A DNA stretch of 64,000 nucleotides. Source: Synechococcus sp. (GTDB lineage: Bacteria > Cyanobacteriota > Cyanobacteriia > PCC-6307 > Cyanobiaceae). Made by a program: the position numbers and the translations under genes. Positions 25,991-51,247 of the stretch are shown here, piece by piece (position 1 is the first letter of the stretch; each line of letters opens with the position of its first letter). The stretch lies in assembly GCA_047285535.1 (NCBI GenBank), contig JBJBDC010000001.1, positions 1,920,136 to 1,984,135 of the forward strand, written 5' to 3'. The notes under the pieces are model-generated. The model was not told the DNA's origin. It did no database searches and saw only the letters and a list, made by a program, of their open reading frames with translations.

Positions 25991-25997
25991 ACCCACC

Positions 25998-32005: not shown

Positions 32006-32144
32006 GTCCTTTGCTGGGTAAGACAACAGCAACCTGAAATCCCATCAACAAAGCTCTGCTTCAAGACGAAAGATTTGTAATGCTTGTGGCTTCATTGCTG
32101 TGCCCTTGCCATAACAGGCCAATGGTTTCTCGCCTAAGAGGCGA

Positions 32145-35100
32145 ATGGCACCACCCTCCTCTTCAAAACCAAGCCGGCAAGGATCATCGGGCGGAGGCCA
32201 AACAGCCAGGCAGCAGCCTGGTGGTTGGGGTGCTCAAGGCGCATCAGAAAGCGGATCCAACCAAAGCCAAGCCCAGGCCCACCTGATCCAGAGTCCAAGC
32301 ATCAGCCTCCCAAAAGGAGGCGGCGCGATCCGAGGCATGGGTGAGAAGTTCAGCGCCAACCCGGTCACCGGCAGCGGTTCGATGACCGTGCCGATCGCTA
32401 CCAGTCCTGGGCGGAGCGGCTTTGATCCTCAGCTCAGCCTGAGCTACGACTCTGGAGCAGGCAACGGGCCCTTCGGCTTCGGTTGGAGCTTGGCGCTGCC
32501 CGCGATCACCCGCAAGACGGACCAAGGCCTGCCCCGCTACAGCGATTGGAGGAGCGATCCGCAGGAGGCGGATGTGTTCGTGCTCTCCGGAGCGGAAGAC
32601 CTGGTGCCGGTGCTGCGCCAGGGGGCCGCAGAGCTGGAGATCCACGACGACGTGATCGATGGCTACCGGGTGCGCCGTTACCGCCCCCGCATTGAAGGCC
32701 TCTTCGCCCGCATCGAGCGCTGGCAGTGGATCCCCACCAGCGCCGACCCGCGCCCGGAGGCCGAGCAGCGGGCTGATGTGCACTGGCGCTCGATCTCCAG
32801 AGACAACATCCTCACGATTTACGGCGCCGATGCCGGCAGCCGTATCGCCGATCCCAAGGATCCCGAGCGCATCTTCAGCTGGCTGATCTGCGAAAGCCGT
32901 GACGACAGAGGCAATGGCATCCGCTACCTCTATAAGGCGGAAGACGGCAACACCACCCTGCGGCCCGGGCAGGCTGATCCCTTCCGGGCCGCTCATCAAC
33001 GCAACCGTGGGACAGCGAACGATCTATCCCGCACCGCCCAGCGCTACCTGCAGCGCATCCTCTACGGCAACCGCAGGCCACTGCTCGATGCCCAGGGGCA
33101 ACGCCCGCGGCGATTGAGCAATCTGCCTGCCCCACCCACCGACAACACCGCCGACTGGCTGTTCGAGGTGCGCTTCGACTACGGCGAACTCAACTCAGAG
33201 GATCCCACCGGCACCCCCGAGCAGCCCTGGCTCTACCGCCCGGATGCCTTCTCTACCTACCGCAGCGGCTTCGAGGTACGCACCTGCCGCCGCTGCGAGC
33301 GGGTGCTGATGCTGCACCACATCCCCGATCAGGCCGCCACTGCCGATCGCCCCCTCCAGCCCGGGTACGAAGGCATGGTGCGCAGCACCGAGTTCGTCTA
33401 TGACGACGAGATTGATCCCACGCTCGCCAGCAAACCCGTCTACAGCTTCCTCAGCCAGGTTGTGCAACGGGGCTGGAAGCAGGAGGGCGACGCCATTACC
33501 ACCAAAACGCTGCCTCCTCTGGAGTTCCGCTACAGCCGGCCCACCCTTGGAGAAGACGTGGAGGAGGTTGATCCTGCCAACCTCGAGAACCTGCCGGTCG
33601 GCCTCGATGGCAGCTCTTATCGATGGGTTGACCTTCATGGTGAGGGGCTGCCCGGCATCCTCACCGAACAAGCTGGGGCATGGTTCTACAAGCGCAACCT
33701 CAGCCCGATGAGTCAACGGCTGCGGGCCGATGCCCAGGCCGATGTGGCCACCTTTGCCGCGCTGGAAACGGTCGCCAACCGGCCCAATGTGAGTCTGGCG
33801 GGTGGTGCCCAGATGCTCGATTTGGCCGGCGATGGCCTACCCGATGTGGTGAGCTTCAGCGCCCCCATACCGGGCCTCTATGAACACGACGGCGCCGAGG
33901 GCTGGCAGCCCTTCCGCTCCTTCCGCGAGCTGCCGAACATTGATTTCAACGACCCCAACCTGCGATTCGTCGACCTCGATGGCGACGGCCATGCCGATCT
34001 GTTGATCAGCGAAGGCGATGTGTTCGTGTGGCATCGCTCCCTTGAGGAAAAGGGGTTTGAGACTGCCCAGCGGGTGCCGCTGCCTTGGGACGAAGAAAAA
34101 GGTCCGCGGGTGGTGTTCGCCGACAGCAACGAAAGCATCCATCTGGCGGACATGAGCGGTGATGGACAGGCGGATGTGGTGCGCATCCGCGCCGGCGTCC
34201 ACGGCCGCGAGATCTGCTACTGGCCAAATCTGGGCTACGGTCACTTCGGGGCCAAGGTGTCGATGGATAACCCGCCCCTGTTCGATCATCCGGAACTGTT
34301 TGACCCCAAACGGCTACTGCTGGCCGACATCGATGGCAGCGGCACCACGGACCTGATCTACCTCCACGCCGAGGGGGTGCGGCTCTATTTCAACCAGGCG
34401 GGCAACGGCTGGAGCGACGCAGTGCCCCTGAAGGTGTTCCCGCCGATCCACAACATGGCCCAGGTGGCCACCGTGGATCTGCTGGGCAATGGCACCGCCT
34501 GCCTGGTGTGGTCGTCGCCGCTGGCGGGCGACAGCGGCCGCCAGATGCGCTACGTGCCGCTGATGACCGAAGGAAAGCCGCATCTGCTCACCACCAGCAT
34601 CAACAACCTCGGCGCCGAAACGCAGGTGCGCTATTGCTCTTCCCTGCGCTTCTACCTGGAGGACAAGCTCAACGGCAAACCCTGGATCACGCGCCTGCCG
34701 TTTCCGGTGCATGTGGTGGAGCGGGTGGAAACGATCGACCACATCAGCCGCAATCGCTTCGTCTCGCGCTATGCCTACCACCACGGTTATTTCGATGGCG
34801 AGGAAAGGGAATTCAGGGGCTTCGGCATGGTGGAGCAGTTCGATACCGAAGCATTCGAAGACTATGTCGTTGGCGTTCAGACAGCTGGAGGCTCACAAGA
34901 ACTGGCGCCTGAGCTGAACCAGCCGCCGGTCACGACCCGCACCTGGTATCACACCGGGGCATTTCTCGATCAGCCGCGAATCCTGCACCAGTACCGACAC
35001 GAGTACTACCAGCAAGAGCAGCACATCCCCGAGCCCTTCTTGCCTGCAGGTCTGAGTGCAGACGAACTGCGCGAATGCATTCGTGCCTTGAAGGGTCTGC

Positions 35101-38100
35101 CGCTACGGCAGGAGATCTACAGCCACGACGACTCGGCTGAACAAGAGCACCCATACACGGTCACGGAGAACAATTTCGAGATTCGCTGGCTTCAACCGCA
35201 TAGCAACCAGCGGCACGGCGTCTTTTTTCCGGTGGGCCGGGAATCCATCTCGCTCAACTACGAGCGCAATCCGGCCGACCCTCGCATCTCGCACACCTTC
35301 GGGCTGGAGCTGGATCAGTACGGCAACGTCCGTAAGTCCTGTTCGGTCGTGTATGGCCGCAAGATTGGCGACGCCTCCCTTCCCCCCGAGGTCAACCGCG
35401 ATCAGCAGCAGCGCTACATCACCTATGCCGAGGCGGACTACACGCCCGACATCGATCAAGCAGAGCCGATCGAATCCTACCGCTTGCGTGTGTCCTTCGA
35501 ATCCAGGAACTACGAGATCAACGGTATCGCTCCGGACGCTGCCTTCTTCCAGTTCGAGGAGATCAAGAACAAGATCGCCGCTGCCGCCCCGATCGACTAC
35601 GAAGTTGTCGCGGACAGCGTCACGCCACAGATTCGGCTGCTCTCCCACGGCCGCACGCTCTTCCTCGACAACGCGCTGAACCCCTTGCCATTGGGCCAAT
35701 GGGACTCACTGGGGCTCGACTACCAAAGCTACAAGCTCGTCTTCACTCCTGGCATCACGGCCGCCCATTACGCCGGCAAGGTGAGCGACGCCGAGTTTAC
35801 CGCTGCGGGATATGTGCACTTCGCTGGTGACGCCAACTGGTGGATAACCTCTGGCACGGCTGTCTATCCAGCAAATCCGCGCGACACTTTCTACCTCCCG
35901 ATCGGCACCAAGGATCCTTTCGGACTGGAAACGATTGCGACCTTCGATCAGCACGTCCTCCTGATCGAAAAGGTGGAGGTCAAGCAAGCCGCTTGGAACG
36001 TCGTCGCAGCGGTCAATGACTACCGCATCTTCGGCCCGATGCTGATGACAGACCCCAATGGGAACCGCTCGGCCGTCGAACACGACGAGTTGGGCATGGT
36101 GGTCAAGACCGCCATCATGGGCAAGGCTGGCTCGACGGATGGCGACACGCTGGCCGACCCGACCACGCGGATGGAATACGAGTTGTTCAACTGGAAGAAC
36201 AACCGCAAGCCCAACTTCGTGCATACCTTCGCGCGCGAGCAGCACGGCGCTGCCAATCCGCGCTGGCAGGAGAGTTATGCCTTCTCCAACGGAAGCGGCG
36301 GTGTGGCGATGGTCAAGGCCCAGGCGCATCCCGGCAAGGCGTTTAAGGTGAATATGGACGGCAGCAAAGCCGAAGTGGATGCCGATCCGCGTTGGGTGGG
36401 CAACGGGCGCACCGTGCTCAACAACAAGGGCAAGCCGGTCAAGCAGTACGAGCCTTACTTCAGTACCACCCACGAATACGAAGACGAAAAGGTGCTGCGT
36501 GAGATCGGCGTCACGCCCGTCCTCTACTACGACCCGGTCGGGCGCAACATCCGCACGCTGTTTCCCAACGGCACCTTCGCCAAGGTCGAGTTCACGCCCT
36601 GGTGGCAAAAAGTCTTTGACGCCAACGACACCGTCAAGCAAAGCCAGTGGTACGTCGACCGGGGCAGGCCTGATCCGACAGCAGAGCCCGAACCGCTGAA
36701 CGACCCGGAACGCCGCGCCGCCTGGCTTGCCTCCAAACACGCCGACACGCCTGGCGTCATCCATTTCGACAGCCTGGGCCGACCCGTCTACGCCGTTTCC
36801 GATTACGGCGAAGGAAAGACGGCGGCGGTGCGCTCGGAAAGCGACCTGACTGGGCGCCTCTCGACGATGTTCGATCAGCAGCAACGAGAAGTCGCAAGCG
36901 GCTTCGTTGGCATGGAGGACACCCCCATCGTCGGCGACAGCGCCGAGAAGGGCCGTCGCTGGACCTTCCAGAACGTGCTCGGTGCGCTGGTTAAGACCTG
37001 GGACGAACACGGCCGCCAGTTCCGCGCCGAGTACGACGAGTTGCACCGCCCTGTTAGCACCTTCGTGAAGCAGGCCGGACAAGGGGAGATCCTGTTCAAT
37101 TACATCGTCTATGGCGACCGTCTTGCCAATGCCGGGCAACTCAACCTGCTCGGCACCGCCCATCTGACCTTCGACCAAGCCGGCTTGATGCGAGTGCCGG
37201 AACTGGACTTCAAAGGTAACCCGAAGGCCGTCGATCGCATCCTGGCCAAGGACTACAAAAACGATCTCGACTGGAGCACTCTGCCAGGTCAAACAAATGT
37301 CACCGCCGTCCAAGCCGCCGCAGATCCCGAGCTGGAAGACGCCGAAGTCTTCTCCGCCAGTTCCTTGTACGACGCGCTGAATCGTCCAACTCGGGTCACG
37401 TTGCCCGATGGCACCATCATCATGCCCAGCTACAACGAGGCCAACTTCCTGACCTCACTGAAGGCGCAAATTCGTGGTCAAGGCAATTTCATCGAATTCC
37501 TCAAAGGCCAGGATTACGACGCCAAGGGCCAGCGCCAGTTCGCGCATTACGGCAACGAAGTCTTCACCCGCTACTTCTACGACCCCAAAACCTTCCGCCT
37601 GAGCAATCTGTTGACCTACAAGTCAGGTGCAGACCCGCAGACCCAAGGGCTGCAGAACCTGAACTACTGCTACGACCCGGTCGGCAACATCACCCAGATC
37701 CGCGACGACGCGCAGCAAACCCATTACTTCAACAACGCCGTCGTCAAGCCTGAAAGCCTGTACGAATACGACGCGATCTATCAGCTCTTCCGCGCCAGGG
37801 GTCGGGAACTCGCCGGTGGGGTTAACGACGCCATCTGCACGCACACCGATTTGGATTTCGTCCAACTTCCGCACCCAAACAATGTCAACGCGGTGCGCAA
37901 TTACACCGAGGAATACGAATACGACCTGCTCGGCAATATCAAGGTGATGAAACATCGCTTCCAATCCCAAGCCGGTATCGGTGGCGGCTGGACGCGCCAT
38001 TACCTTTATGCCTTTGACAACGCGCCGGGCAATCGCACCAACCGCCTAACCGCCACCAGCCAGCCAGGCGACCCGGATGCAGGCCCTTATACCGGCACCT

Positions 38101-39896
38101 ACGACTACGACGCCTACGGCAACATGACCCGCATGCCGCACCTAGCGGCCATGGACTGGAACTTCATGGACCAGTTGCACCGGGTGGACTTGGGCGGCGG
38201 CGGGACGGCTTATTACGTCTATGGCCTGGACGGTCAGCGTCTGCGCAAGGTGATCGAGCGCAACGGCAACCTGAAGCTCGAATGGATCTTTCTCGGCGCG
38301 GTGATGATCTTCCGCCGTCGTCGGCGCAACACCAACGATTTGCGTCTGGAACGCTGGACGGTCCACATCAGCGACAACACTGACCACATCGCGCAGGTGG
38401 ATACCAAGACGCGGGACGATGACAACGACGATCCGGCCAATCCGCTCAATGTTCCGCTCATTCGGTATCAGCATGCCAATCACCTCGGCTCAGCGGTGCT
38501 GGAGACAAACGAAGACAGCGACCTGATCTCCTATGAGGAGTACCACCCCTACGGCACCACGGCATATCGCTCGGCTAAACCTGGATTCGATATAAGTCTG
38601 AAGCGATATCGATTCAGCGGGAAGGAGCGGGATGACGAAACTGGGTTGTACTACATCGGCACGAGGTATTACGCGCTATGGCTTGGGAGATGGACTAGTA
38701 CTGATTCAGCTGGATTCGTTGACGGCGTCAACCTATATCGGTATTGCCGGAATTCCCCAACCGTCCATGTAGACCCCACAGGCCTCGATCCTGAGTACCT
38801 TCCCGGAACACCTGAGGATAGGCTCACACCTAAATCAACACAGGCTGAGCGTGAGGCGTTTGCGCGAAGAAGGGGATTCAGGGTTATCGATCCAAATCCA
38901 GAGCAGCAACGCTGGGTAGGGACACCAGAAGCTGGAAGTTGGGAATTGAGCCCTGAAGGAAGACTAGAGAGAATTACTCCAGAAGGAACGCACAGCAGTA
39001 AGCCAGCCCCTAGTACAGGAAATGAAGAACTAGCTACACCAGAACCCCCATTACCAAATAACCCATCTCCAGCGCCCACTCCTGAATCGTCAGAATCAAG
39101 TGATACGAGAAACGGAGAAGGTAGTGAGAGGAGTTTCTTTACCAGCAGCTTCTTCAAAGGATTGGCTGTGGGTCTTGCTGTCACTGTTGCTGTGGTGGCA
39201 GTCGTCGCAACAGGTGGAGCAGCTCTTGCTGCAATTGCGCCGGCTGCTTCAGCCGCAATTGCTTCATCTGGAGTTGGCACAGCAATCGCCATAGCCGGCA
39301 CAACGGTTGCTGTCGCCAACACTGTTCAATCGGTGCGTCAGCGTGATCTCTGGAATAACCCCATCTCGGAGGAGCAAGCCAACTTCAATCTTGGTCTAGG
39401 AGTGGGCTCTTTTGCTTCAGGAGCACTCTCACGCCCAATTTCTGGGGCTGTTAGTCCGCTCGGGCAAAGCTTAGGTCGCGGCGCAGGCCAAGGAATTGAA
39501 AACATGTCGTCAGGAATGTTTATCCCGGCATTGCCTGGTGGAGGAACTTTTGGAGGCGCCATTTCGACTACCGCGGCTGCGGGTGTGAATACAACGTCAG
39601 CTGTAACGGCAGCTGGCACTGCCATGGGAGCCAATGTTCTCATGATGTCCGGCAATCAGGGGGATGATTGGGATGACCAAGGCTGGCGTCCAAAGAAAGC
39701 CAAGGGAAAGACATTTCGCGGAGGAAGAAAGAGCTCTCGAGACAACTGGTATGGGTTTGATCGAGATAAAAATTTCGTCAGATGGTGGCATCGCCAAGGA
39801 AAGTCAGAATTTGGAGGAAATGATATTGATAACGCTGCAGAGGCCAAAGAGATCTATACCTACTGGGTTAGCATTGGAAAGCCGGCGCCAAAATGA
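32145..39896 (+). CDS. Tc toxin complex TcB-TcC fusion (SpvB-like N-terminus, FG-GAP repeats, YD/Rhs shell, Rhs core protease, variable C-terminal cargo)
   Basis: SLPKGGGAIRGMGEKF..YDSGAGNGPFGFGW; DxxGDGxxD repeats; EREFRGFG; RYRFSGKERDDETGLYY; NLYRYCRNSPTVHVDPTGL. Confidence 0.95.
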   Translation: MAPPSSSKPSRQGSSGGGQTARQQPGGWGAQGASESGSNQSQAQAHLIQSPSISLPKGGGAIRGMGEKFSANPVTGSGSMTVPIATSPGRSGFDPQLSLSYDSGAGNGPFGFGWSLALPAITRKTDQGLPRYSDWRSDPQEADVFVLSGAEDLVPVLRQGAAELEIHDDVIDGYRVRRYRPRIEGLFARIERWQWIPTSADPRPEAEQRADVHWRSISRDNILTIYGADAGSRIADPKDPERIFSWLICESRDDRGNGIRYLYKAEDGNTTLRPGQADPFRAAHQRNRGTANDLSRTAQRYLQRILYGNRRPLLDAQGQRPRRLSNLPAPPTDNTADWLFEVRFDYGELNSEDPTGTPEQPWLYRPDAFSTYRSGFEVRTCRRCERVLMLHHIPDQAATADRPLQPGYEGMVRSTEFVYDDEIDPTLASKPVYSFLSQVVQRGWKQEGDAITTKTLPPLEFRYSRPTLGEDVEEVDPANLENLPVGLDGSSYRWVDLHGEGLPGILTEQAGAWFYKRNLSPMSQRLRADAQADVATFAALETVANRPNVSLAGGAQMLDLAGDGLPDVVSFSAPIPGLYEHDGAEGWQPFRSFRELPNIDFNDPNLRFVDLDGDGHADLLISEGDVFVWHRSLEEKGFETAQRVPLPWDEEKGPRVVFADSNESIHLADMSGDGQADVVRIRAGVHGREICYWPNLGYGHFGAKVSMDNPPLFDHPELFDPKRLLLADIDGSGTTDLIYLHAEGVRLYFNQAGNGWSDAVPLKVFPPIHNMAQVATVDLLGNGTACLVWSSPLAGDSGRQMRYVPLMTEGKPHLLTTSINNLGAETQVRYCSSLRFYLEDKLNGKPWITRLPFPVHVVERVETIDHISRNRFVSRYAYHHGYFDGEEREFRGFGMVEQFDTEAFEDYVVGVQTAGGSQELAPELNQPPVTTRTWYHTGAFLDQPRILHQYRHEYYQQEQHIPEPFLPAGLSADELRECIRALKGLPLRQEIYSHDDSAEQEHPYTVTENNFEIRWLQPHSNQRHGVFFPVGRESISLNYERNPADPRISHTFGLELDQYGNVRKSCSVVYGRKIGDASLPPEVNRDQQQRYITYAEADYTPDIDQAEPIESYRLRVSFESRNYEINGIAPDAAFFQFEEIKNKIAAAAPIDYEVVADSVTPQIRLLSHGRTLFLDNALNPLPLGQWDSLGLDYQSYKLVFTPGITAAHYAGKVSDAEFTAAGYVHFAGDANWWITSGTAVYPANPRDTFYLPIGTKDPFGLETIATFDQHVLLIEKVEVKQAAWNVVAAVNDYRIFGPMLMTDPNGNRSAVEHDELGMVVKTAIMGKAGSTDGDTLADPTTRMEYELFNWKNNRKPNFVHTFAREQHGAANPRWQESYAFSNGSGGVAMVKAQAHPGKAFKVNMDGSKAEVDADPRWVGNGRTVLNNKGKPVKQYEPYFSTTHEYEDEKVLREIGVTPVLYYDPVGRNIRTLFPNGTFAKVEFTPWWQKVFDANDTVKQSQWYVDRGRPDPTAEPEPLNDPERRAAWLASKHADTPGVIHFDSLGRPVYAVSDYGEGKTAAVRSESDLTGRLSTMFDQQQREVASGFVGMEDTPIVGDSAEKGRRWTFQNVLGALVKTWDEHGRQFRAEYDELHRPVSTFVKQAGQGEILFNYIVYGDRLANAGQLNLLGTAHLTFDQAGLMRVPELDFKGNPKAVDRILAKDYKNDLDWSTLPGQTNVTAVQAAADPELEDAEVFSASSLYDALNRPTRVTLPDGTIIMPSYNEANFLTSLKAQIRGQGNFIEFLKGQDYDAKGQRQFAHYGNEVFTRYFYDPKTFRLSNLLTYKSGADPQTQGLQNLNYCYDPVGNITQIRDDAQQTHYFNNAVVKPESLYEYDAIYQLFRARGRELAGGVNDAICTHTDLDFVQLPHPNNVNAVRNYTEEYEYDLLGNIKVMKHRFQSQAGIGGGWTRHYLYAFDNAPGNRTNRLTATSQPGDPDAGPYTGTYDYDAYGNMTRMPHLAAMDWNFMDQLHRVDLGGGGTAYYVYGLDGQRLRKVIERNGNLKLEWIFLGAVMIFRRRRRNTNDLRLERWTVHISDNTDHIAQVDTKTRDDDNDDPANPLNVPLIRYQHANHLGSAVLETNEDSDLISYEEYHPYGTTAYRSAKPGFDISLKRYRFSGKERDDETGLYYIGTRYYALWLGRWTSTDSAGFVDGVNLYRYCRNSPTVHVDPTGLDPEYLPGTPEDRLTPKSTQAEREAFARRRGFRVIDPNPEQQRWVGTPEAGSWELSPEGRLERITPEGTHSSKPAPSTGNEELATPEPPLPNNPSPAPTPESSESSDTRNGEGSERSFFTSSFFKGLAVGLAVTVAVVAVVATGGAALAAIAPAASAAIASSGVGTAIAIAGTTVAVANTVQSVRQRDLWNNPISEEQANFNLGLGVGSFASGALSRPISGAVSPLGQSLGRGAGQGIENMSSGMFIPALPGGGTFGGAISTTAAAGVNTTSAVTAAGTAMGANVLMMSGNQGDDWDDQGWRPKKAKGKTFRGGRKSSRDNWYGFDRDKNFVRWWHRQGKSEFGGNDIDNAAEAKEIYTYWVSIGKPAPK

Positions 39897-40408
39897 ATGA
39901 CATTAAAACAGCCACATTTCATCAACTAATAGATCACATTAAGAGTGACGATTCGCATAGAATCATAGAAGCTGTCCGCGAGTGTGCCTCGCGTCAAGAA
40001 GAAGTCGCTGCTCCTTATTTGCTGAATATTCTCCAAGTGACCCAAGACGCTGCAGTGAGAAACGCCGCTGCGCTCGCTTTGAGCGATCTAAAGAATCCCG
40101 CCGCATTTGGCATATTAGTGGAGTTACTGAAAAGCGACCATGCCCGTGAAAGCCAGGGGACGCTTTTATATGCACTCGACACGTACGACTGTTCACCAAT
40201 CTTGCCCTTATTAGTAAATCTGGTTATTGATGGAAATTTTGAGGTTAGTCGACAAGCATTTAGCCTGATCTCTGGCATTGAAACTGAGCTAGACGATCGT
40301 GTTTGGCAAAGCTGTAGAGAACGACTACAGTCTGCAATTGTGGTTACCACAGAAGATCAGCGGCCAGTACTGGAGGAACTGCTCAAGCTGTTCGAGCAGG
40401 ATGAATAG
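39893..40408 (+). CDS. HEAT-repeat-like protein, candidate immunity protein
   Basis: ATGA overlap with the toxin stop; VRNAAALALSDL..AF.ILVELL HEAT pattern; AT-richer, like the toxin tip. Confidence 0.75.
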   Translation: MNDIKTATFHQLIDHIKSDDSHRIIEAVRECASRQEEVAAPYLLNILQVTQDAAVRNAAALALSDLKNPAAFGILVELLKSDHARESQGTLLYALDTYDCSPILPLLVNLVIDGNFEVSRQAFSLISGIETELDDRVWQSCRERLQSAIVVTTEDQRPVLEELLKLFEQDE

Positions 40409-44400: not shown

Positions 44401-47400
44401 GCTGAACGATGCGACGCTGCTCGGACTGATGCGGCTGCAGAAAATCCGCGATGCCTGGCGGCTCACCGTAGAGGAGGTGCTGGCCTTGATCGCACCTCTC
44501 GACATTCGGGTGCGCGACTGGCTGACGGGGGACGGACGGTCGCTCTACACCGACCTCTTCGAGGATCGCGCGGTACAGAACCCACCCGATCCTGACCTCT
44601 CCATCACCGCCGTGACCGCCGCGGTGCCGCCCGCGCTGATCGGCAGCAAGGCGGCGATCCTCTCGGCCAGCATCGCCATCACCGCCGACGATTTCGCTCT
44701 TCTAGTGCCGACCACCGCCGACCCCGATCTCGCCCTTCCCGTCGCGAGCGACCGTGCGTCACTGAGCGCTATTTCGCAGGTTTATCGCTTCTCGAGGCTG
44801 GGCCAGGTCCTTCGGCTGCGGGTGTCCGAGCTGCTGGACTTCGCCCGACTTGCCAGGGCGCCGCTGAATGCGGACGGGCGGGTCGATCCCTTCCAGACGG
44901 TGCAGACGCTGACCGATTTCCTGACAATGTTCAGCCGTCACTCGGCGAGCGGTCTTGCCATCGGGGAATCGCGCCACGCCACGACCTTCTGGCCCGAGTC
45001 CATCTTCGGCGCTGGGGACAGCGCGATCTCGGCCAATCTCGAAGAAATCCGCACTGCGCTTGCCGACCTTCGGGCCGAGACCATCGTGCCCGCGGAAGAG
45101 CGCGCCGCTGCGCTTGAGCGCCATTTGCCTGGGGTTGCAGACTTCAAGGATGCAGCGATCCGCGCAACCGCCATCGCGATCATCGACGACAGCTATGCCG
45201 ACACGCTCGCCAACCGGAACGCCTTCATCACCAGCCATTTCAGCGCGCTGATGCCGGTGGCCGCGGCCATCGCCGCCTTCGCGCCCTATGGCGGGCCGCC
45301 CGCCGGCGGCGATGCGGCGGTCGACGCGCGCAGGCTGATCGGGTTGCAGGCGGTCTACAACGCGCTCGGCCGCACCGCCATCACCGCCGCCGTAACAGGC
45401 CAGACCGGAGCCAGGTCGGAGGCCGAGGCGGCCGACTTCCTGTCCTGGTCCATGCAACGCAGCGGGCTCGACAGCCTCGGCGCGCTGATCCTGGCCGAGA
45501 GCGACTTCCTCACGCGCACCGCTGATGACAGCGCCTACCTCCTGACCGCCGACAGCACCGACATGCCCGATATCTTCGAGGCGGCGCAGCTCGTGGACAA
45601 GCTCGCCTTCATTAAGGAGGCGCTCGGCTGGAGCGATGCGCAGCTGATTTGGTTCGTCAGCAACGAAGGGAGCTTCGGATTACCACAGCTGACCGCGCTG
45701 CCCGTCAAGGCGGGCGACGGTCCCGCAGCCTTCGTGGAGTGGCTGACACTGCTGCGCTGGACGCAGGTCATGAACGCCTTCCCCAGCTCCGAGACCCTAT
45801 CGCTGCCAGGCATTCTCGGCCAGATCGGGAGCGCGGGTTACAACGCCACACAACTGGCCGAGGACCTCGCCGTCTGGACCCAGCGGGTACCCGAGACGAT
45901 GTCGGGTGCCATCGCCGAGCTTGCGCTTGCCTATCCCGGTGATTTCCGCACGGTCGGCGCCTACGAGCGGCTACTGACCGCGCTCGAGGTGATCAAGCTC
46001 GCCGGTGTGACCCCGGCCCAGCTCACCGCCTGGGCGCAGCCCGGCGTGACCCCTGCCGTGGCGCAGCAGATCAAGCTCGCCGCCAAGGCGCGCAATTCGC
46101 TCGATGAATGGCTGAAGAACGCGCCGCCGCTGCAGGACCGCCTGCGCGAGGCCAAGCGCGTCGCGCTCATTACCTACCTGACGACCCGACCCGCCTCAGC
46201 CGGACCGTCGTGGCGCGACGCGAACGCGCTATTCGCGCATTTCCTGATCGACCCCGAGATGACCGCCTGCCGCAAGTCCTCGCGGCTGGTGCAGGCCACG
46301 GGATCGCTGCAGCTTTTCGTGCAGCGCTGCCTGATGAACCTCGAACCCGCCGTGCTGGCCGATGGCGATGACGATGGCTGGAACGAATGGGACTGGATGT
46401 ATGCCTACCGCCTCTGGGAAGCCGCGCGGAAGGTCTTCCTCTGGCCCGAGAACGTGATCCGGCCCGAGCTCAACCGGATGAAATCCCCGGCGCTCCTGCA
46501 GCTTGAACAGAAGCTGTCGCAGATGGAGATGACCGAGGAGAACGCCGAGATCGCAATGGAGCAGTACCTCGAGACGCTTGACGGCATCGCGAATATGGAC
46601 GTCCTCGCCATGTACGAGGAAACGACTGGCCGCGACCGTCTCATTCACACGCTGGCCCGCACCAAGGGCCAGCCGCAGACCTACTACTACCGGCAGAGGG
46701 TCTTTCCCAACAACGCCGCATCCGCCTACTGGACGCCGTGGGAGAAGCTCGACATCGAGATCGGCGGCACGCCGATTTTCGGCTTCATCAACCGCAAGCT
46801 GCATCTCTTCTGGCTGTTCTTCACCAAGAGAGCGGACCCAACCCAGCGTATGCCTCCCTCGCAGGCGTCAAACCAGCCGCCGCCTGACACGATCAACATG
46901 TGGGAAATCCAGCTTTGCTGGTCAGTCCGGCGGCAAGGTCACTGGCAGCCGGCGCAGAAGGGCGAACGCAAGTGGTTCTACCCACAATTCCGACCCAAGC
47001 GCAGCTTCCACTTGCGCACCGCGGCCTATGCCGGCGACCGATTGGCGATCAACGTCTTCGTCTCAACCTCGCCGGAATTCAACGACTACGCCCCTTGGAC
47101 CTATTTGTCCACCAGTGTGGGAACAATCCAACTACAACGGGATCCGGTGCGGCATAACGAGGACACGCGACCTTTTCATGTCGCTCGCTTCGTCTTCAAG
47201 AGCAACGTGGACGAGATCCAGATGAGCCAACGCGGGCAGACCTACCCATCTGACATTTTCGGGGGCTCTTACGGGGCCGAGGCCGCCGAGATGAAAGAGC
47301 TGACAAACCCGCTCGCTGACCTAACCATGCCGACCGACATGAAATATGTCGGCCAGACGATTCAGAACCAGTCCGATAATGACTCGAACCTCCATGCCCT

Positions 47401-50400
47401 TCCGTCGGCGGGCCCGGCCCTGCGGCTTGACAGCGGCAAGCTGCTCGATGACGCGCCCGCCCCGTTCGGCATTGTCCCATCGTCGCAGCGCGCGCAGTTC
47501 GACTCAACCCGGCCCTTCTTCTACACCGATCGCGAGCGCAGCTTCTTCGTGCGGCCGACCAAGGAATGGCGCGTGGACCATTCCTTCACAACCGAGGAAC
47601 CTTCTCTGTCGGGGGTCACCGACTACAGGGTCAAATACACGTTCGACCGCAATTATCACCCGTTCACCGGCTTCTACCTCGACGAACTAGCAACCGGCGG
47701 GTTGAGTGGCTTATTCAAACGCTCGAACCAGCTTTCGCCACCCTCGTCCTTCAGCTTCGCCGAGTACGACCCCGAACAAATGGTCAAAGCCGACCATCCG
47801 AACGACATCGTCGATTTCGGATTCTCGGGGACTTATTCCCTTTACAACTGGGAATTACTGTTTCACGCTCCATTCCTGATTGCGAACCGGCTATCGGAGA
47901 ACCAGCGCTTTGACGAAGCGCTCAACTTCCTCCGCTACATCTTTAATCCGACTAATACCGGCAGCGATAACGCTCCGCAGCGGTTCTGGATCACGAAGCC
48001 TTTCTACCAAATGAGCTCCGGGGCTTATCACTCCAGCCGGATCGAACGCCTACTGGAACTCGTCAATGGCGGATCTTCAACTCATATAGCTCAAGTTGAG
48101 CAATGGCGCAACGATCCCTTCGATCCTCACATGCTCGCACGGCTCCGGCCCGTCGCCTATCAACGCGCCGTGGTGATGGCCTATATCGGCGCCCTGCTGG
48201 ACTGGGGTGAACAGGAGTTCCGGCGCTTCACCACCGAGAGCCTCAACCTCGCCACGCAATACTTCGTGCGTGCACAGGACCTGCTAGGACGGCGGCCCGA
48301 GACCGTTGTGGTCGACCGGCGCACCGAGGCGAAAAGCTTCCGCGAGGTCGAAACCGATCTTGACGCATTCGGCAACCTGCTGTCCGAGGTCGAGAACCTG
48401 CTGCCGCCTCCACCTCCAGGCGGCCCCGGCGGGTCAGAACCGCTGCCCCCGATCACCATCTTTTATTACTGCATCCCCGGAAACGACAAGCTTCTGGACT
48501 ACTGGGACCGAGTGGAGCGCAACCTCTTCAATCTGCGCCATTGCCGCGATATCGAAGGTGTCTCCAAGCCTTTACCACTTTTCGCGCCACCGATCGACCC
48601 GGCGATGCTGGTGCGAGCAGCGTCCGCAGGCATCGACCTCGCGACGCTGGCGGGCGGAACGGCCTCGGCTCTGCCGAAATACCGCTTCCGCTTTATCCTT
48701 CAGCGTGCCTACGACTTCGCCTCCCAGGTCGAGCGGTTGGGCGCGGCCCTGCTATCTGCCTTTGAACGCAAGGACGAGGTGGCGCTCGCTGAGCTGCGCG
48801 AAAGCCACGTGGCTGAAATCCACACGCTTCGCGAAGACATCGCGTCACTCCGAATCAATGAGGCCAAGGCCGAGTTGGACCGACTGAAGGAGTCCAAGAA
48901 ACTCGTCGGTCTTCGAGAAACGTTCTACAAGAAGAAGACCGAAACGCCGGTTGGTGTGTTGGAGACGATCGGCATCGGGCTGAAGGGAACGAGCTTCCTT
49001 TTGAGCAGCACCTCCTTCGGGCTGAAGCTTGCGAGCGGCGGGCTGTACTGGATACCTGACTTCCAAGGCGGTGCCTCTGGTGTGGGTGGCACCCCGCATG
49101 CAACGCTCAAAGCAGGTGGCAAGCAGGCTGGAGACAGCACCAAAACGCTCTCAGATGGCTTCAAGGAACTGGCCTACTTAGCTGACAAGGGTGCTGAACT
49201 GAGCTTCAAGATCCAGTATTTCCTCGACCGTCACAAGCAGTACGAACACCAGCTCAAGCTTGCCGAACAGGAGATTGTCGCGATCGAGAAGCAGGAGGCC
49301 AAGGCTGAGATCCTCCAACAGATCGCCGAGCAGGAGTCCGATGTTCAGAAGCAGCATTCCGAAAACGCCGAGGCAACGTTGGCTTTCTTGCGGTCGCGCT
49401 ACACCAACAAGGAGCTCTACGACTGGCTGATCGCGCAACTTTCGACGATCTATTTCCAGTCGTACCAGAGCGCATTCGCCATGGCGCTCTCTGCCGCGGC
49501 TTGCGCCGAACGCGAGGTGGGGCTGATCGGCACGAACTACATCAAGTTCGGCTACTGGGACAGCCTGCGCAAGGGCCTACTGTCGGGCGAGAAGCTGAGC
49601 CAAGACCTCAGACGGCTTGAGACGGCCTATCTCGACCGCAACCAGAGGCTCTACGAGATCCAGAAGGACGTCTCTGTGGCGCTTCTGGATGCGGAGGCCC
49701 TGCTGACCCTGCGTGCGACAGGGGCCTGCGAGATCGAAGTGCCCGAGCTGATCTTCGACTGCGACTATCCGGGCCACTACAAGCGCCGCATCAAGTCCGT
49801 CGCGATTACCATCCCAACTGTCGCAGGTCCTTACACCTCGGTCAATTGCAAACTGACGCTGCTACGCGACGAGATACGTCTGAACACAAGCCTCGCGCTG
49901 GGCTATCCGCGCACCTCGATGACCGATGACGACCGCTTCGCCGACAACTGGGCGGCGACTAATGCCATCGTGACCTCAAAGGCGATCAATGATGCTGGTC
50001 TCTTCGCGCTCGATCTCGAAGACGACCGCTATCTGCCTTTCGAGGGCGCGGGAGCCGTTGGCCGCTGGCGGATTGAGCTACCGGCCGACACCAATGCCTT
50101 CGCGCTCGATTCGGTTTCAGACGTCGTACTGCACCTCCGCTACACCGCGATGGAAGGCGGCGAGACACTTGCCGAGGCAGCACGCGCGGTCGCCTCGAAG
50201 CGCGAGGTAGCGAAAAGCGCCAGGATCATGCGCCTCGACCAGGCTTACGCCGCGGCATGGCAAAGTCTCGTCTCTGCTCCTGGCACTGGGCAGGATCAGG
50301 CAATGTCTCTCGCGTTCACCAAGGAGCTCTTGCCCTATCTCGACCGGGTCCGCGACCTGAAGGTGACGTCTATCGCCCTCTCCGCCATAGACGCAACCGG

Positions 50401-50641
50401 TGACCTGACAGCAGAGATTACGGCGCCAGGTGGGATGGTGGGAACCATCGAGATGACAACGGACAGCGACCTTGGTGGTCGCATCTCGGGCGATACAGCG
50501 GGCAGCTTCGCAGCGGGTGTGCCCCTAGGAGACTTCACGCTGAAGCTGCGCATGTCGACTGCCATGGACAACCGCTCCCTGACCGAAGCGGACCTGTCAG
50601 GTTTGTACGCCGTGGTCTTCTACGAAGCGGAACTGCCGTGA
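41498..50641 (+). CDS. Tc toxin complex subunit A-like protein with an N-terminal peptidoglycan-binding-like domain
   Basis: FG.ET...V..LQ...GL..TG.VD..T; LFGSLD.C.C..C.SV.GPAAYL; HFLID.EM; YRLWEA.RKVFL.PEN; YNWELLFHAP; FAPPIDP; GLLSGEKL; RRIKSV; YLPFEG.GA. Confidence 0.93.
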   Translation: MEKIVAPISRMMKNAAVANLHAALKALGRSLPDIETKTNYFGSETAKSVAALQEAAGLQQTGDVDTATAKHLNKILAEKGLFDDAPPDGDGRGSGGSERNGNTDKPETVHVFGRVISHKERPAQGVVTIFRAAFRTEEKLVAFETDQKGRYEGKLIRDPATGPLNIFARITLNNGTTITSDLVFNAAGKVELNLNAAGRLIPTQSVFEEIETNVRMVIGSAAIASLRETRTQTDITYLAQDRKLDPEMLARRAMAERIGKAQKIAPEVIFAFLAQSEPAVLPSSSLTATPTQDAADDLENRVFAGIVTLDEPTQRRILQKAIAKDLVRFDIAEAIDEAIKSLRTRRGLVLANAPFGAGKKSMNDLLSATSLNQTQRTTFVNYSMKVQAEGGLLWEALEMNEAIPAAKLREARATFAFGAMSKNHIPFIEYAKAALPDEMTGEPGRVAYLTLKEWTTFLNRGVEAGKEVIPDNIDGETQEDRVGAFAQMLMERAEDNYPAMATIGRIRERDDVKLDAAGELVAAVSKVPDMNLRTLNINAVRLGRDVALGEETLAKTLRTTIKIVSDMSDESVADLKRAQRAVRLAPNATAAAALLATGQDSAHLIHKRGRSNFIADAIKAGMTDLQAGQTFNRAKASYGYLVARFLEYRLDLDKASPAAVGGAWKSDDLIAEVENDPSLRTLFGSLDSCGCEWCESVHGPAAYLTDVLRWLGERRARSGSGFASARAVLEDRRGDILDILLNCQNTDTLMPYIDLVNEVLEEAVSPTGVARQTNWRSEELMAEPEHVNDDAYALLAVASHAPGLPFDLRDTEAQTYLAHLRLTRAEVMEALRKQTNGLPSERDIAAAYFGISNAASVIITKADPAAQATFWAYSAPSELIPNASCETLMARADISHNDLAELLNVEFVNGTAPRSTFQPEFECDLIDRRVTQLSVERLDRMNRFIRLWRHLGWKMWELDRAIMAMGGVLNDATLLGLMRLQKIRDAWRLTVEEVLALIAPLDIRVRDWLTGDGRSLYTDLFEDRAVQNPPDPDLSITAVTAAVPPALIGSKAAILSASIAITADDFALLVPTTADPDLALPVASDRASLSAISQVYRFSRLGQVLRLRVSELLDFARLARAPLNADGRVDPFQTVQTLTDFLTMFSRHSASGLAIGESRHATTFWPESIFGAGDSAISANLEEIRTALADLRAETIVPAEERAAALERHLPGVADFKDAAIRATAIAIIDDSYADTLANRNAFITSHFSALMPVAAAIAAFAPYGGPPAGGDAAVDARRLIGLQAVYNALGRTAITAAVTGQTGARSEAEAADFLSWSMQRSGLDSLGALILAESDFLTRTADDSAYLLTADSTDMPDIFEAAQLVDKLAFIKEALGWSDAQLIWFVSNEGSFGLPQLTALPVKAGDGPAAFVEWLTLLRWTQVMNAFPSSETLSLPGILGQIGSAGYNATQLAEDLAVWTQRVPETMSGAIAELALAYPGDFRTVGAYERLLTALEVIKLAGVTPAQLTAWAQPGVTPAVAQQIKLAAKARNSLDEWLKNAPPLQDRLREAKRVALITYLTTRPASAGPSWRDANALFAHFLIDPEMTACRKSSRLVQATGSLQLFVQRCLMNLEPAVLADGDDDGWNEWDWMYAYRLWEAARKVFLWPENVIRPELNRMKSPALLQLEQKLSQMEMTEENAEIAMEQYLETLDGIANMDVLAMYEETTGRDRLIHTLARTKGQPQTYYYRQRVFPNNAASAYWTPWEKLDIEIGGTPIFGFINRKLHLFWLFFTKRADPTQRMPPSQASNQPPPDTINMWEIQLCWSVRRQGHWQPAQKGERKWFYPQFRPKRSFHLRTAAYAGDRLAINVFVSTSPEFNDYAPWTYLSTSVGTIQLQRDPVRHNEDTRPFHVARFVFKSNVDEIQMSQRGQTYPSDIFGGSYGAEAAEMKELTNPLADLTMPTDMKYVGQTIQNQSDNDSNLHALPSAGPALRLDSGKLLDDAPAPFGIVPSSQRAQFDSTRPFFYTDRERSFFVRPTKEWRVDHSFTTEEPSLSGVTDYRVKYTFDRNYHPFTGFYLDELATGGLSGLFKRSNQLSPPSSFSFAEYDPEQMVKADHPNDIVDFGFSGTYSLYNWELLFHAPFLIANRLSENQRFDEALNFLRYIFNPTNTGSDNAPQRFWITKPFYQMSSGAYHSSRIERLLELVNGGSSTHIAQVEQWRNDPFDPHMLARLRPVAYQRAVVMAYIGALLDWGEQEFRRFTTESLNLATQYFVRAQDLLGRRPETVVVDRRTEAKSFREVETDLDAFGNLLSEVENLLPPPPPGGPGGSEPLPPITIFYYCIPGNDKLLDYWDRVERNLFNLRHCRDIEGVSKPLPLFAPPIDPAMLVRAASAGIDLATLAGGTASALPKYRFRFILQRAYDFASQVERLGAALLSAFERKDEVALAELRESHVAEIHTLREDIASLRINEAKAELDRLKESKKLVGLRETFYKKKTETPVGVLETIGIGLKGTSFLLSSTSFGLKLASGGLYWIPDFQGGASGVGGTPHATLKAGGKQAGDSTKTLSDGFKELAYLADKGAELSFKIQYFLDRHKQYEHQLKLAEQEIVAIEKQEAKAEILQQIAEQESDVQKQHSENAEATLAFLRSRYTNKELYDWLIAQLSTIYFQSYQSAFAMALSAAACAEREVGLIGTNYIKFGYWDSLRKGLLSGEKLSQDLRRLETAYLDRNQRLYEIQKDVSVALLDAEALLTLRATGACEIEVPELIFDCDYPGHYKRRIKSVAITIPTVAGPYTSVNCKLTLLRDEIRLNTSLALGYPRTSMTDDDRFADNWAATNAIVTSKAINDAGLFALDLEDDRYLPFEGAGAVGRWRIELPADTNAFALDSVSDVVLHLRYTAMEGGETLAEAARAVASKREVAKSARIMRLDQAYAAAWQSLVSAPGTGQDQAMSLAFTKELLPYLDRVRDLKVTSIALSAIDATGDLTAEITAPGGMVGTIEMTTDSDLGGRISGDTAGSFAAGVPLGDFTLKLRMSTAMDNRSLTEADLSGLYAVVFYEAELP

Positions 50642-51072
50642 TGGAACAGCCTCTGCAAACCTCCAGCGGCTCTGTCGATGCAGTGGAAGAAGTCGCGAGC
50701 AGGCTGGAGCCAGAGCGAGCGATTGCCCTGAAACGCGCGGTCAGCGTCCTGAAGGAATTTTACGATCCTCCAGCGATCTTCCTCTTTGGCTCATCAGCCA
50801 AAAACAAGGCCAGCACATTGAGCGATCTGGACCTTTTAATCCGCATGCAGAGCCGAGAAAGACGTAGCGCACGCGGCACCGAATTCAAAGAGGTGTTCCT
50901 TAGCAGCTATCCGCGGGTCGACCTCGTCGTCTTCAACGATGACGAGGTACGCCATCATCTCGCCAACCCGTATTCCTTCCTATCGAGTGTGATGGCTAGC
51001 GCACGGCCACTTTTTCTGAAATCGCCACATGACGAGCCGCTCCTGCAGGGTGCACGGGGACTGAACTATTAA
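50638..51072 (+). CDS. Minimal nucleotidyltransferase (Pol-beta superfamily)
   Basis: IFLFGSSA......SDLDLLI and VDLVV motifs; GTGA overlap with the tcA stop. Confidence 0.85.
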   Translation: MMEQPLQTSSGSVDAVEEVASRLEPERAIALKRAVSVLKEFYDPPAIFLFGSSAKNKASTLSDLDLLIRMQSRERRSARGTEFKEVFLSSYPRVDLVVFNDDEVRHHLANPYSFLSSVMASARPLFLKSPHDEPLLQGARGLNY

Positions 51073-51148
51073 GGCGAGACCCGACGCGGTCTAGCCGGCT
51101 GAGCCTTCGCCATTGACCATGGTCCGATTCATATTGGCCACTTCATCG

Positions 51149-51247
51149 GAATTGCCCACCAACTTGCGTACATTCGATGATTCCACCATCACCGATGTGG
51201 TGTTTTGCGTCAGCTACACGCCAAGAGATGGCGGAAGCAGTTTCCGA
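51149..51247 (+). pseudogene. Remnant of a second TcA-like C-terminus
   Basis: ELPTNLRTFDDSTITDVVFCVSYTPRDGG resembles ELPADTNAFALDSVSDVVLHLRYTAMEGG at about 50075. Confidence 0.65.

Follow-up and report, generated by a model that had tools for sequence, protein, structure and literature searches.

A Synechococcus Tc toxin locus with a probably exchanged tip and HEAT-repeat gene cassette

The Tc locus and its carrier proteins

A 64,000-nucleotide stretch of a Synechococcus sp. genome (contig JBJBDC010000001.1, positions 1,920,136 to 1,984,135), referred to here as the window, contains four co-directional open reading frames (ORFs) on the + strand that, going by the ORF list of the window, make up a Tc (ABC) toxin locus. 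The first gene encodes a TcB-TcC fusion of 2583 amino acids (TcBC, 32145-39896), and it is followed by genes for a 171-amino acid HEAT-repeat protein that is proposed to be a cognate immunity protein (39893-40408), a TcA of 3047 amino acids (41498-50641) and a minimal nucleotidyltransferase of 144 amino acids (50638-51072). These four genes had already been described in a first-pass annotation, and all are present with domains that are borne out by Pfam. The genome consists of one contig of 3.03 Mb, wherein there are 13 matches to phycobilisome proteins and a single TcA. Except for the cassette that encodes the tip of TcBC, the + strand block at 32063-51277 is shared, as judged by blastn, with a sister genome (G714). 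We consider it likely that this is an intact environmental-type Tc locus, with TcB and TcC in one protein, that follows the logic of polymorphic toxins and carries a swapped cassette formed by the tip and the HEAT gene.

The TcB portion of the fusion is recognized by Pfam matches to SpvB (E 6.5e-99), TcdB_toxin_midN (8.3e-33), midC (6e-32) and FG-GAP_3 (1.4e-13), such that SpvB, an FG-GAP propeller and the TcdB middle domains, which characterize a TcB, are all present. The TcC portion includes RHS_repeat matches and a complete Rhs-associated core (TIGR03696 in NCBIfam, E 1.2e-23, profile positions 1-76 of 76) at residues 2133-2214. This core ends in DPTGL at residue 2214, and a tip of 369 amino acids then follows. 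By these profile matches the TcC part appears complete, with an RHS shell, an Rhs core carrying a predicted autoproteolytic site and a hypervariable region after it. Because the core spans residues 2133-2214, the tip start at 38787 (residue 2215) that the first-pass annotation had placed there is exact. Among PDB sequences, TcBC matches TcdB2-TccC3 with E 5e-204. The earlier description of an intact TcB-TcC/Rhs fusion is upheld by the open 2583-amino acid frame, wherein the domains from SpvB to the Rhs core are all matched.

TcA carries VRP1 (residues 688-764), ABC_toxin_N (1547-1670), neuraminidase-like (1701-1823) and TcB-binding (2598-2884) domains, with E-values of 4.3e-106 for TcA_TcB_BD (PF18276), 1.4e-24 for PF18413 and 5.8e-39 for PF20220. 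The C-terminal TcB-binding domain (49289-50149, + strand) covers profile positions 1-287 of the 287 in PF18276 and is present as a single copy in the genome. With its TcB-binding and neuraminidase-like domains, the protein has the features that define the TcA of a Tc complex. Matches to PDB sequences (YenA2, TcdA4 and TcdA1, E 1e-101 to 1e-71) are limited to approximately residues 2104-2899, a region that comprises the channel and the TcB-binding domain.

A PG_binding_1 domain (PF01471) is located near the start of TcA, at residues 14-72 (41537-41713, + strand), with E 2.1e-9 and 37.8 bits against a Pfam cut-off of 23. Downstream of it, at residues 107-191 (41816-42070, + strand), is a beta-sandwich that resembles transthyretin and CarboxypepD_reg. 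An AlphaFold2 (AF2) model of residues 1-330 has a mean predicted local distance difference test score (pLDDT) of 87, and of about 90 over residues 1-80. The model depicts a helical domain at residues 15-78, with helices at 15-26, 33-37, 43-55 and 66-78, then a disordered linker at 87-102, the strands of the sandwich at 107-191 and further helices. Foldseek searches with the sandwich return hydroxyisourate hydrolase, transthyretin and the TTR domain of teneurin, and Pfam finds CarboxypepD_reg in related TcAs. The N-terminus of TcA also returns SleC, a lytic transglycosylase that we take to bear a peptidoglycan-binding domain.

There are 34 long TcA-like proteins (the window's own counted) that match the first 700 residues of this TcA, and PF01471 is found in 18 of them. 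The nearest relative of the N-terminus is an Aphanothece protein with 80% identity. Fifteen aligned TcA N-termini keep the PG_binding_1 motif and the V-G-V...G-P...G-Y pattern that follows it. Among the 14 N-termini other than that of the window, PG_binding_1 scores above the cut-off in G714 and in two Myxococcota genomes (G1049 and G908), and it reaches 22.1 bits against 23 in the picocyanobacterial genome G636. A metagenome scan with the TcA N-terminus recovered one locus, which has only 898 bp upstream. The first-pass annotation had noted a PG_binding_1-like motif at the start of TcA, and the above-threshold Pfam match, the helical bundle of the AF2 model and the recurrence in 18 of 34 relatives all bear this out. 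The N-terminus thus carries a genuine PG_binding_1 domain joined to a transthyretin-like sandwich. This layout is common to a subfamily of TcA proteins that crosses phyla.

The tip, its HEAT partner gene and a sister genome

The tip is modular and consists of three parts, all encoded on the + strand. An acidic, proline-rich linker with an isoelectric point (pI) of 4.7 occupies tip residues 1-115 (38787-39131). It is followed at residues 116-300 (39132-39686) by a hydrophobic pre-toxin module that is rich in glycine, alanine and valine, wherein hydropathy analysis indicates a membrane-span-like stretch at residues 118-163, and the conserved block holds about 45 hydrophobic residues. The last part, which was delimited by HMMER and alignment, is a basic domain of about 65 amino acids with a pI of 10.2 (TcBC residues 2517-2583, 39693-39893), and we regard it as the putative toxin. 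The whole 369-residue tip matched no Pfam family.

A full HMMER search with the tip against 1.84 billion representative proteins yielded 175 matches at E <= 0.001, 80 of them at E <= 1e-10. Among the best 150 of the 175 matches, which are the ones listed, most cover only tip residues ~303-369. These residues correspond to the C-terminal ends of the matching proteins, whose lengths range from 47 to 2385 amino acids. Thirty of the 150 were scanned against Pfam, favouring longer proteins and those that match the middle of the tip. RHS repeats were found in 11, eCIS_core in three, PT-HINT in two, PT-TG in one and DUF6443/Ig_7 in one, and 12 had no family. The same toxin domain is therefore carried by unrelated proteins (RHS, PT-HINT, PT-TG and eCIS_core), as is the case in polymorphic toxin systems.

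Three of the scanned proteins match the hydrophobic module only, and each of these ends in another toxin. Homologues of the module precede a Pput2613-like deaminase (P0065), a barnase-type ribonuclease (P0095) and an ADP-ribosyl cyclase (P0212), and the carrier of the last is VgrG-like, with a VgrG-type Phage_GPD domain. Fragment P0065 is 57% identical over tip residues 3-301, yet it has a different terminal toxin. As an observation in its own right, the module (39132-39686) is a conserved unit by itself, found in P0065, P0068, P0095 and P0212 on both Rhs and VgrG-like carriers. No Pfam or NCBIfam family corresponds to it.

The window's fragment of the toxin domain was aligned with 35 of the listed matches of at most 125 amino acids. 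These 36 sequences define the motif F[RK]GG-K--RD-W[YF]G ... F--WWHR-GK ... D ... W---G[KR]P, wherein the G-G, R-D, G and F positions are invariant and the W-W-H-R, G-K, D, W and G positions are nearly so. Pfam gave nothing better than E 0.017 for any of the 36 members, the Ntox and Tox families included, and the best match among PDB sequences had E 0.34. There is no entry in the ESM Atlas for the window's domain or for its homologue P0074. The parts of the Danov et al. preprint on nine new toxins that were covered contain neither a HEAT immunity protein nor this motif. On the basis of these searches, the ~65-residue domain appears to be a widespread, uncatalogued C-terminal putative toxin of Rhs, HINT, PT-TG and eCIS-core proteins.

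The HEAT gene begins within the TcBC stop codon, with an ATGA overlap at 39893-39896, and its product matches HEAT_2 (E 1.8e-10, 41.4 bits, cut-off 27.7). The small ATGA-coupled HEAT-like gene of the first-pass annotation is thereby confirmed, both in its overlap and in its family. The pI of the HEAT protein is 4.6 versus 10.2 for the toxin domain, and so the two have complementary charges. There are 63 homologues, most of which are 160-181 amino acids long, and those with a named source are from Pseudomonadota, Actinoplanes and Minicystis.

An alignment of 20 homologues was scanned against species-representative genomes, and this identified 16 other loci. In five of them the toxin domain is encoded directly upstream of the HEAT homologue, with 44-78% identity. 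These five are in a Myxococcales metagenome-assembled genome (MAG), a Pseudomonadota MAG, a 1600-amino acid Rhs protein of Paenibacillus, a Beijerinckiaceae MAG and a Stellaceae MAG. Their junctions are a GTGA overlap, an ATGA overlap and spacers of 12, 5 and 13 nucleotides. Hence a downstream partner gene, which overlaps the toxin gene or lies within 13 nucleotides of it, accompanies the toxin domain in five of the 16 HEAT loci and in the window, which is an arrangement typical of polymorphic toxin systems. TcA was not detected at these 16 loci. In three loci (L009, L015 and L002) the upstream frames are short (116-373 amino acids from stop to stop), with the toxin domain at the end. As a separate observation, the pairs at L009 (9624-10537) and L015 (8153-9806), both from alphaproteobacterial MAGs, are small free-standing units next to metabolic genes, where no Rhs carrier is apparent, and these resemble a toxin-antitoxin module.

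Over six pairs, the window's included, the pairwise identities of toxin and HEAT protein co-vary with r = 0.85, a value that was reached by four of 720 permutations. The two genes thus travel and diverge together, and the covariation is by itself no proof that toxin and HEAT protein co-evolve physically. In addition, there are three cases where the longest contig of a toxin-bearing fragment has the same length as that of a HEAT homologue (2968, 2361 and 2976 bp), which is consistent with further toxin-HEAT pairs. From these sequence relationships, we take the HEAT gene to encode the immunity protein that is cognate to the toxin domain.

The neighbourhoods of HEAT genes without the toxin domain were sampled by scanning 41 of the 75 flanking ORFs of eight such loci, the HEAT genes, almost every ORF on the minus strand and the majority of long ORFs being set aside. 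In five of the eight, all five from Bacillota, the HEAT gene is located within a run of small genes on the same strand. The neighbours are SUFU and DUF3885 (L010), YxiJ (L013), DMP19 and DUF1871 (L017), DUF4279 (L007) and DUF7674 (L012). We take DUF3885, YxiJ, DMP19, DUF1871, DUF4279 and DUF7674 to be immunity-like, and by their gene content these runs may be immunity islands. In the parts of Zhang et al. (2012) that were covered, SUFU is listed by name as an immunity family, and the HEAT class is also named there as an immunity class, paired with other toxins (Ntox34 and Tox-REase-7).

Comparison with G714 indicates how this pair may have come to its present carrier. Positions 32063-38732 match G714 at 86% identity by blastn, 41487-51096 at 81-87% and 51089-51277 at 80%. 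The shared block taken together is 86-87% identical at the DNA level, and the TcBC core is shared at 87%. Beyond the block the flanks differ, and the single ORF of the G714 flanks that does match the window is 38% identical and located elsewhere in it. The ratio of nonsynonymous to synonymous substitution rates (dN/dS) against G714 is 0.12 for the TcBC core and 0.19 for TcA, which indicates purifying selection on both. Synteny breaks exactly at 38733-40447, from just before the end of the Rhs core to just after the HEAT gene, and this cassette (+ strand) has no DNA match to G714. The GC content at third codon positions is 0.40 for the tip and 0.43 for the HEAT gene versus 0.77 for the TcBC core and 0.79 for TcA. 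At the same place, G714 has an unrelated tip and then a helical ORF of 196 amino acids that belongs to no family. A decayed remnant of this downstream gene is present in the window immediately after the HEAT gene (40445-40756, + strand), wherein tblastn and translation reveal 73% identity to residues 5-59 and 44% to residues 141-195 of the G714 protein. The remnant carries two in-frame stops, and residues ~60-140 are deleted.

The simplest reading of these sequences is that the tip and the HEAT gene would have entered together as one low-GC cassette and replaced a PIN-like tip, after which the earlier downstream gene decayed. Under such a scheme, an ancestor would have carried a tip of the G714 type together with its partner gene. 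A foreign cassette of tip and HEAT gene would then have replaced this tip through recombination at the conserved Rhs core, and the orphaned former partner would have degenerated. Displacement that leaves decayed modules behind is the pattern of Rhs loci and of contact-dependent inhibition (CDI) loci. A metagenome fragment (P0250) shares the whole tip, with a C-terminal domain that is 81% identical and a preceding Rhs core that by eye is about as close, which suggests that the cassette circulates among related carriers. The first-pass annotation had considered that a downstream gene that stays the same with different tips would speak against its proposal, and the opposite is seen in that both the tip and the downstream gene of G714 differ from those of the window.

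There are few other Tc loci among relatives. PF18276 is found in four of 401 genomes of the family to which the window belongs (its own counted) and in none of 36 other genomes of the genus, and the N-terminus of the window's TcA has matches in two of the 401 genomes that were sampled from the phylum. The TcB-TcC tip of G636 matches SsdA_C with 29.6 bits (cut-off 27), which we take to be a single-strand DNA deaminase toxin, and an ORF with DDE_Tnp_1_assoc lies between TcB-TcC and TcA in that genome. With G636 and G461 adding two further tips, close relatives have a conserved carrier with alternative tips. On a side note, the tip of G461 (L033, 11563-13762) ends in a weak LysM match (19.9 bits, cut-off 20.9) and the next gene encodes a NUDIX-domain membrane protein; this LysM would be a second peptidoglycan-related domain of a picocyanobacterial Tc locus. 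No PG_binding_1 match is present in the TcA N-terminus of a more distant cyanobacterium (G398).

PF18276 is also found in 15 of 301 sampled Myxococcota genomes, and ten of the 20 matching places were fetched, chosen for long frames on long contigs. A TcB-TcC fusion adjoins TcA in eight of these ten loci, and in G1049 and G797 the order is that of the window, namely TcB-TcC, one or more small ORFs and TcA. Six of seven tips and 12 nearby small ORFs were scanned against Pfam, with the tip of G1026a omitted for an X in its translation, and none of the six tips matched. A protein of the SMI1_KNR4 (SUKH) family is encoded downstream of the fusion in G1046, and an ankyrin protein downstream of the fusion in G1026a. 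In G949, an ORF of 140 amino acids overlaps the stop of the fusion by four nucleotides. Thus, immunity-type genes at Tc loci are not confined to this genome, and the design is not unique because Myxococcota show the same. As a minor observation, the TcA of G797 (Minicystis; L076/L077) is interrupted by ORFs on the opposite strand that span about 3 kb.

The polymorphic toxin build proposed in the first-pass annotation is well supported by these data, through a mobile toxin domain on many carriers, a coupled HEAT partner in other phyla and an exchange of tip and HEAT gene, and its antibacterial and wall-tethered readings are hypotheses.

Relation to known systems and possible targets

The nearest characterized systems are the Tc toxins of insect pathogens, namely TcdA1/TcdB2-TccC3 of Photorhabdus luminescens and YenA/YenB/YenC of Yersinia entomophaga. 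These have the same neuraminidase-like and TcB-binding domains in TcA, the same SpvB, propeller and middle domains in TcB, and the same RHS shell, Rhs core and variable tip in TcC. Several features differ. In the window a single natural gene encodes both TcB and TcC and lies ahead of the TcA gene, and TcA is about 500 amino acids longer, with its N-terminal PG_binding_1 and transthyretin-like domain. The tips of insect-pathogen Tc toxins are of ADP-ribosyltransferase and deamidase kinds, whereas the tip described here matches no Pfam family, those two groups included, and is a polymorphic toxin module with a cognate downstream gene. Moreover, the host is a free-living cyanobacterium.

A second resemblance is to Rhs toxin/immunity systems such as type VI Rhs effectors and WapA-type proteins. 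Shared features include a core that ends in DPxGL, a C-terminal toxin that can be exchanged, an immunity gene closely coupled to it on the downstream side and displacement that leaves decayed modules, and the same toxin/HEAT pair is found on the 1600-amino acid Rhs protein of Paenibacillus. Unlike in those systems, delivery here would use the adjacently encoded TcA syringe rather than a type VI or type VII apparatus. Like the HEAT protein of the window, the Imm-HEAT of Zhang et al. (2012), as described in the parts covered, is a small all-alpha HEAT protein encoded directly after a polymorphic toxin domain. However, its partners there are Ntox34 and Tox-REase-7, and the partner toxin here is a different domain that is absent from Pfam. 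Those parts also describe an SpvB/TcdB-TcaC class with the same SpvB, propeller and RHS carriers and many toxins with named immunity families. In them this route is listed among the trafficking modes of toxin domains and is treated as a route of export, but TcA partners, swaps within complete Tc loci and cyanobacterial hosts are not treated, and Cyanobacteria are not in the phyletic list given for it.

In the covered parts of Song et al. (2021), no predicted immunity proteins were found in any Tc locus examined, B-C fusions having been excluded, and a eukaryotic target is stated as the current understanding for Tc toxins. The missing immunity genes are taken there as a sign that only eukaryotes are targeted. 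The premise of the first-pass annotation that characterized Tc toxins generally lack immunity genes agrees with that survey, but it has to be qualified in view of the export route in the portion of Zhang et al. (2012) that was covered and of the SUKH and ankyrin genes in Myxococcota. In full-text literature, no paper pairs 'Tc toxin' with 'Synechococcus', and only Song et al. (2021) combines 'Tc toxin' and TcA with 'peptidoglycan binding', the term being used for VgrG proteins in the part covered. Going by titles and the openings of abstracts, none of the listed papers on Tc toxins, TcA, immunity proteins and interbacterial action treats an antibacterial Tc toxin.

TcA is a pentameric syringe, above which TcB-TcC forms a closed RHS cocoon. 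The Rhs core cleaves the tip within this cocoon, and the unfolded tip is pushed through the TcA channel into the target cell. The proteins of the window probably work in the same manner, such that the tip would be cut off by the Rhs core inside a TcB-TcC cocoon and injected through the channel of a TcA pentamer. The acidic HEAT protein may bind and neutralize the basic toxin in the cytoplasm of the producer. If so, the target of the toxin would be something that bacteria also have, probably nucleic acid or the translation apparatus. Perhaps the hydrophobic module aids the toxin in crossing or entering a membrane, because its homologues precede toxins that act in the cytoplasm. The locus as a whole can be described as a Tc toxin crossed with an Rhs polymorphic toxin, wherein the new parts are the uncatalogued toxin/HEAT pair and the PG-binding TcA subfamily.

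Several observations weigh against this interpretation of the tip and its partner. An AF2 model of an 83-amino acid toxin fragment consists of two helices with a mean pLDDT of 76, Foldseek returned nothing for it at E <= 0.001, and a wide VIA search gave weak, scattered rows with a best Z of 3.8. The domain could work by binding instead of catalysis. In 11 of the 16 HEAT loci there is no adjacent toxin domain, and the HEAT gene could serve otherwise there. HEAT repeats are generic binders, and the window's protein gives weak NCBIfam matches to a putative lyase (E 0.001) and to CpcF (E 0.009), with 15-18 bits versus cut-offs of 220-275. Only 259 bp separate TcBC from TcA in G398, and so no gene follows the tip in that genome. 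Likewise, the PIN match of the G714 tip has 19.6 bits, below the Pfam cut-off of 23.6, the 196-amino acid ORF after it has no family, and we infer that ORF to be an immunity gene from its position and from its decay in the window.

With regard to the cell that is attacked, one explanation is that the machine is directed against eukaryotic grazers. An immunity gene would then be needed only because the target of the toxin is universal, and PG_binding_1 would keep TcA on the wall or the debris of the producer, such that the toxin fires in the acidified food vacuole after being swallowed. This is a serious possibility, though we stop short of calling it probable. Eukaryotic cells are the targets of all characterized Tc toxins, and a shift in pH sets these toxins off, which agrees with the covered parts of Song et al. 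(2021), and release by lysis is reported for the Yersinia Tc. No signal peptide is evident in TcA, because the PG_binding fold already takes in its first residues. The rarity of the locus in the family and genus fits an accessory defence trait, and no orphan HEAT immunity genes were found in the 400 related genomes. On the other hand, the tip has no eukaryote-specific domain, the other occurrences of the toxin/HEAT pair are in Rhs settings of bacteria, the window ORFs that were scanned include no member of a holin or endolysin family, and tethering to the wall is speculation.

Another explanation, which we hold to be rather unlikely, is that the machine is aimed at other bacteria. In such a mechanism, PG_binding_1 would dock on the wall of the target, the channel would breach the outer layer, the hydrophobic module would carry the toxin inward and the HEAT protein would protect the producer and its kin. 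Peptidoglycan is restricted to bacteria, and several of the findings above point in the same direction. These include the toxin/HEAT pair on Paenibacillus Rhs proteins and in other bacteria without TcA at those loci, the toxin-less HEAT genes in arrays of Bacillota that resemble immunity islands, and related cyanobacterial Tc tips that are drawn from the interbacterial repertoire (SsdA_C deaminase and PIN-like). The SUKH and ankyrin genes after Myxococcota fusions and the occurrence of the hydrophobic module before cytoplasm-acting toxins, one of them on a VgrG-like protein, also fit. Against this, the peptidoglycan of diderm bacteria lies beneath the outer membrane, and so a 1.5-MDa pentamer on the outside presumably cannot reach it. 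Relatives show no trace of an arms race, since a search of the 400 other family genomes found no orphan HEAT immunity gene at E <= 1e-12 (at most eight candidates scored per genome). If a toxin acts on something universal, its producer requires immunity no matter which cell is attacked, and therefore the immunity gene alone cannot decide the target. Lastly, no antibacterial Tc toxin is known, and the eukaryotic target is the view given in the covered parts of Song et al. (2021).

A more detailed and slightly more doubtful version of the bacterial explanation is that the PG-binding TcA subfamily of Cyanobacteria and Myxococcota docks on wall material and its channel opens the outer barrier. The module would then ferry a universal toxin across the cytoplasmic membrane, with the HEAT protein providing immunity to kin.

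Whichever cell is attacked, it is improbable that the HEAT protein is something other than an immunity protein, such as a chaperone or assembly factor that loads the hydrophobic tip, or an unrelated HEAT protein akin to bilin lyases. The weak lyase and CpcF matches, the binder-like repeats, whose nearest solved sequences are artificial alphaRep binders, and the chaperones that are known for membrane-spanning effectors in type VI secretion would accord with such a role. However, the HEAT gene travels with the 65-amino acid toxin domain and not with the hydrophobic module (L009, L015 and L002), and HEAT genes are also found alone among immunity-type genes. A function as phycobilin lyase was specifically considered and rejected, because the lyase scores are far below their cut-offs and the HEAT family was not found in the other 400 genomes of this family, whose members bear phycobilisomes. 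It is very improbable that the locus is a horizontally transferred relic that is silent or decaying, for even though it is in a variable-GC island with an integrase and mobile elements occur in related loci (DDE_Tnp_1_assoc in G636, HTH_Tnp_1 in G714 and the split TcA of G797), its 2583- and 3047-amino acid frames are open, dN/dS against G714 is 0.12-0.19 and the recent cassette swap implies continuing selection for a working tip.

Tc toxins have been studied as insecticidal or anti-animal weapons, and the sister loci provide a natural experiment because they differ only in the tip and the next gene, with the displaced gene decayed. The probable swap would link Tc machines directly to the trade in toxin cassettes and immunity genes that marks the toxins of bacterial warfare. 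Further results are a widespread, uncatalogued toxin domain with its HEAT partner, an uncatalogued hydrophobic module that precedes several kinds of toxin, a subfamily of TcA proteins from different phyla that begin with PG_binding_1, and immunity-type genes beside Myxococcota TcB-TcC fusions. The question of what environmental Tc toxins target becomes testable in a culturable and harmless phototroph. If the antibacterial explanation were true, Tc toxins would form a third large class of interbacterial injection machines beside type VI secretion and contractile injection systems.

The nucleotidyltransferase and the surrounding island

The fourth gene of the locus encodes a protein that matches NTP_transf_2 (E 1.3e-7, 32.4 bits versus a cut-off of 21) and keeps the GS...SDLDL motif intact. 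Positions 50638-50643 read GTGATG, and so the start codon is either the GTG, which gives a GTGA overlap with the TcA stop, or the in-frame ATG one codon further on, which overlaps the stop by one base. The overlap with TcA that the first-pass annotation had described as GTGA coupling is present, and both starts fit. In G714, the gene is at the same position with 79% identity by blastp (77% in a codon alignment) and dN/dS 0.18. It is a conserved, co-inherited gene under purifying selection.

MntA of the MntA/HepT type VII toxin-antitoxin system is likewise a minimal nucleotidyltransferase with a GS...D-x-D motif, and the MntA antitoxin family (NF047752) is the best NCBIfam match, with 28 bits against a cut-off of 60 that it does not reach. 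Unlike MntA, the gene is coupled to TcA, and there is no HepT or HEPN gene nearby in the window genome or in G714. The three downstream ORFs have no Pfam match at E <= 10, and an extra 460 bp after the nucleotidyltransferase of G714 hold an ORF for an HTH_Tnp_1 transposase and no HepT. It seems unlikely that this protein is a working part of the Tc machine, for example as a modifier of TcA, the toxin or the target, instead of a passenger. Its overlap with the TcA stop, its intact catalytic motif, the lack of a HepT/HEPN partner near it in either genome and its conservation at the same position in G714 would favour such a part. However, the gene was seen only in these two close loci, and no match was found in the other Tc loci that were fetched (G636, G461, G398 and ten Myxococcota loci). 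G636 has an ORF on the + strand after a TcA on the - strand. The gene could also be a remnant of a toxin-antitoxin system that is carried along with the block, given its sub-threshold match to MntA.

The window is a variable-GC island between core genes. No tRNA genes were found across it, and no direct or inverted repeats were found to bracket 32063-51277. A scan of 31700-51600 for promoters and terminators gave counts at or below chance (4 observed versus 4.8 expected from shuffled sequence and 11 versus 18.1, respectively). Immediately upstream of the Tc block, a gene with GXWXG/DUF4334 domains is bracketed by a 105-nucleotide direct repeat with 74% identity (31029-31133 and 31889-31993), and the second copy ends about 70 nucleotides short of the start of synteny with G714. 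Downstream of the block, there are only short ORFs at 51200-52900, and one of these (111 amino acids, 52148-52483) matches only positions 319-421 of the 445 in the Amidase profile and is probably a gene fragment.

A tyrosine recombinase with Phage_integrase and a SAM-like N-terminus is encoded at 17241-18215, within the variable-GC region and about 14 kb upstream of the Tc block. Between the two, an ORF of 536 amino acids without a Pfam family (24380-25990) is overlapped at its end by a gene for a DUF4231/SLATT_1 protein (25869-26462). The latter is of the two-transmembrane effector type, and together these two genes may form a defence-type pair of the same island.

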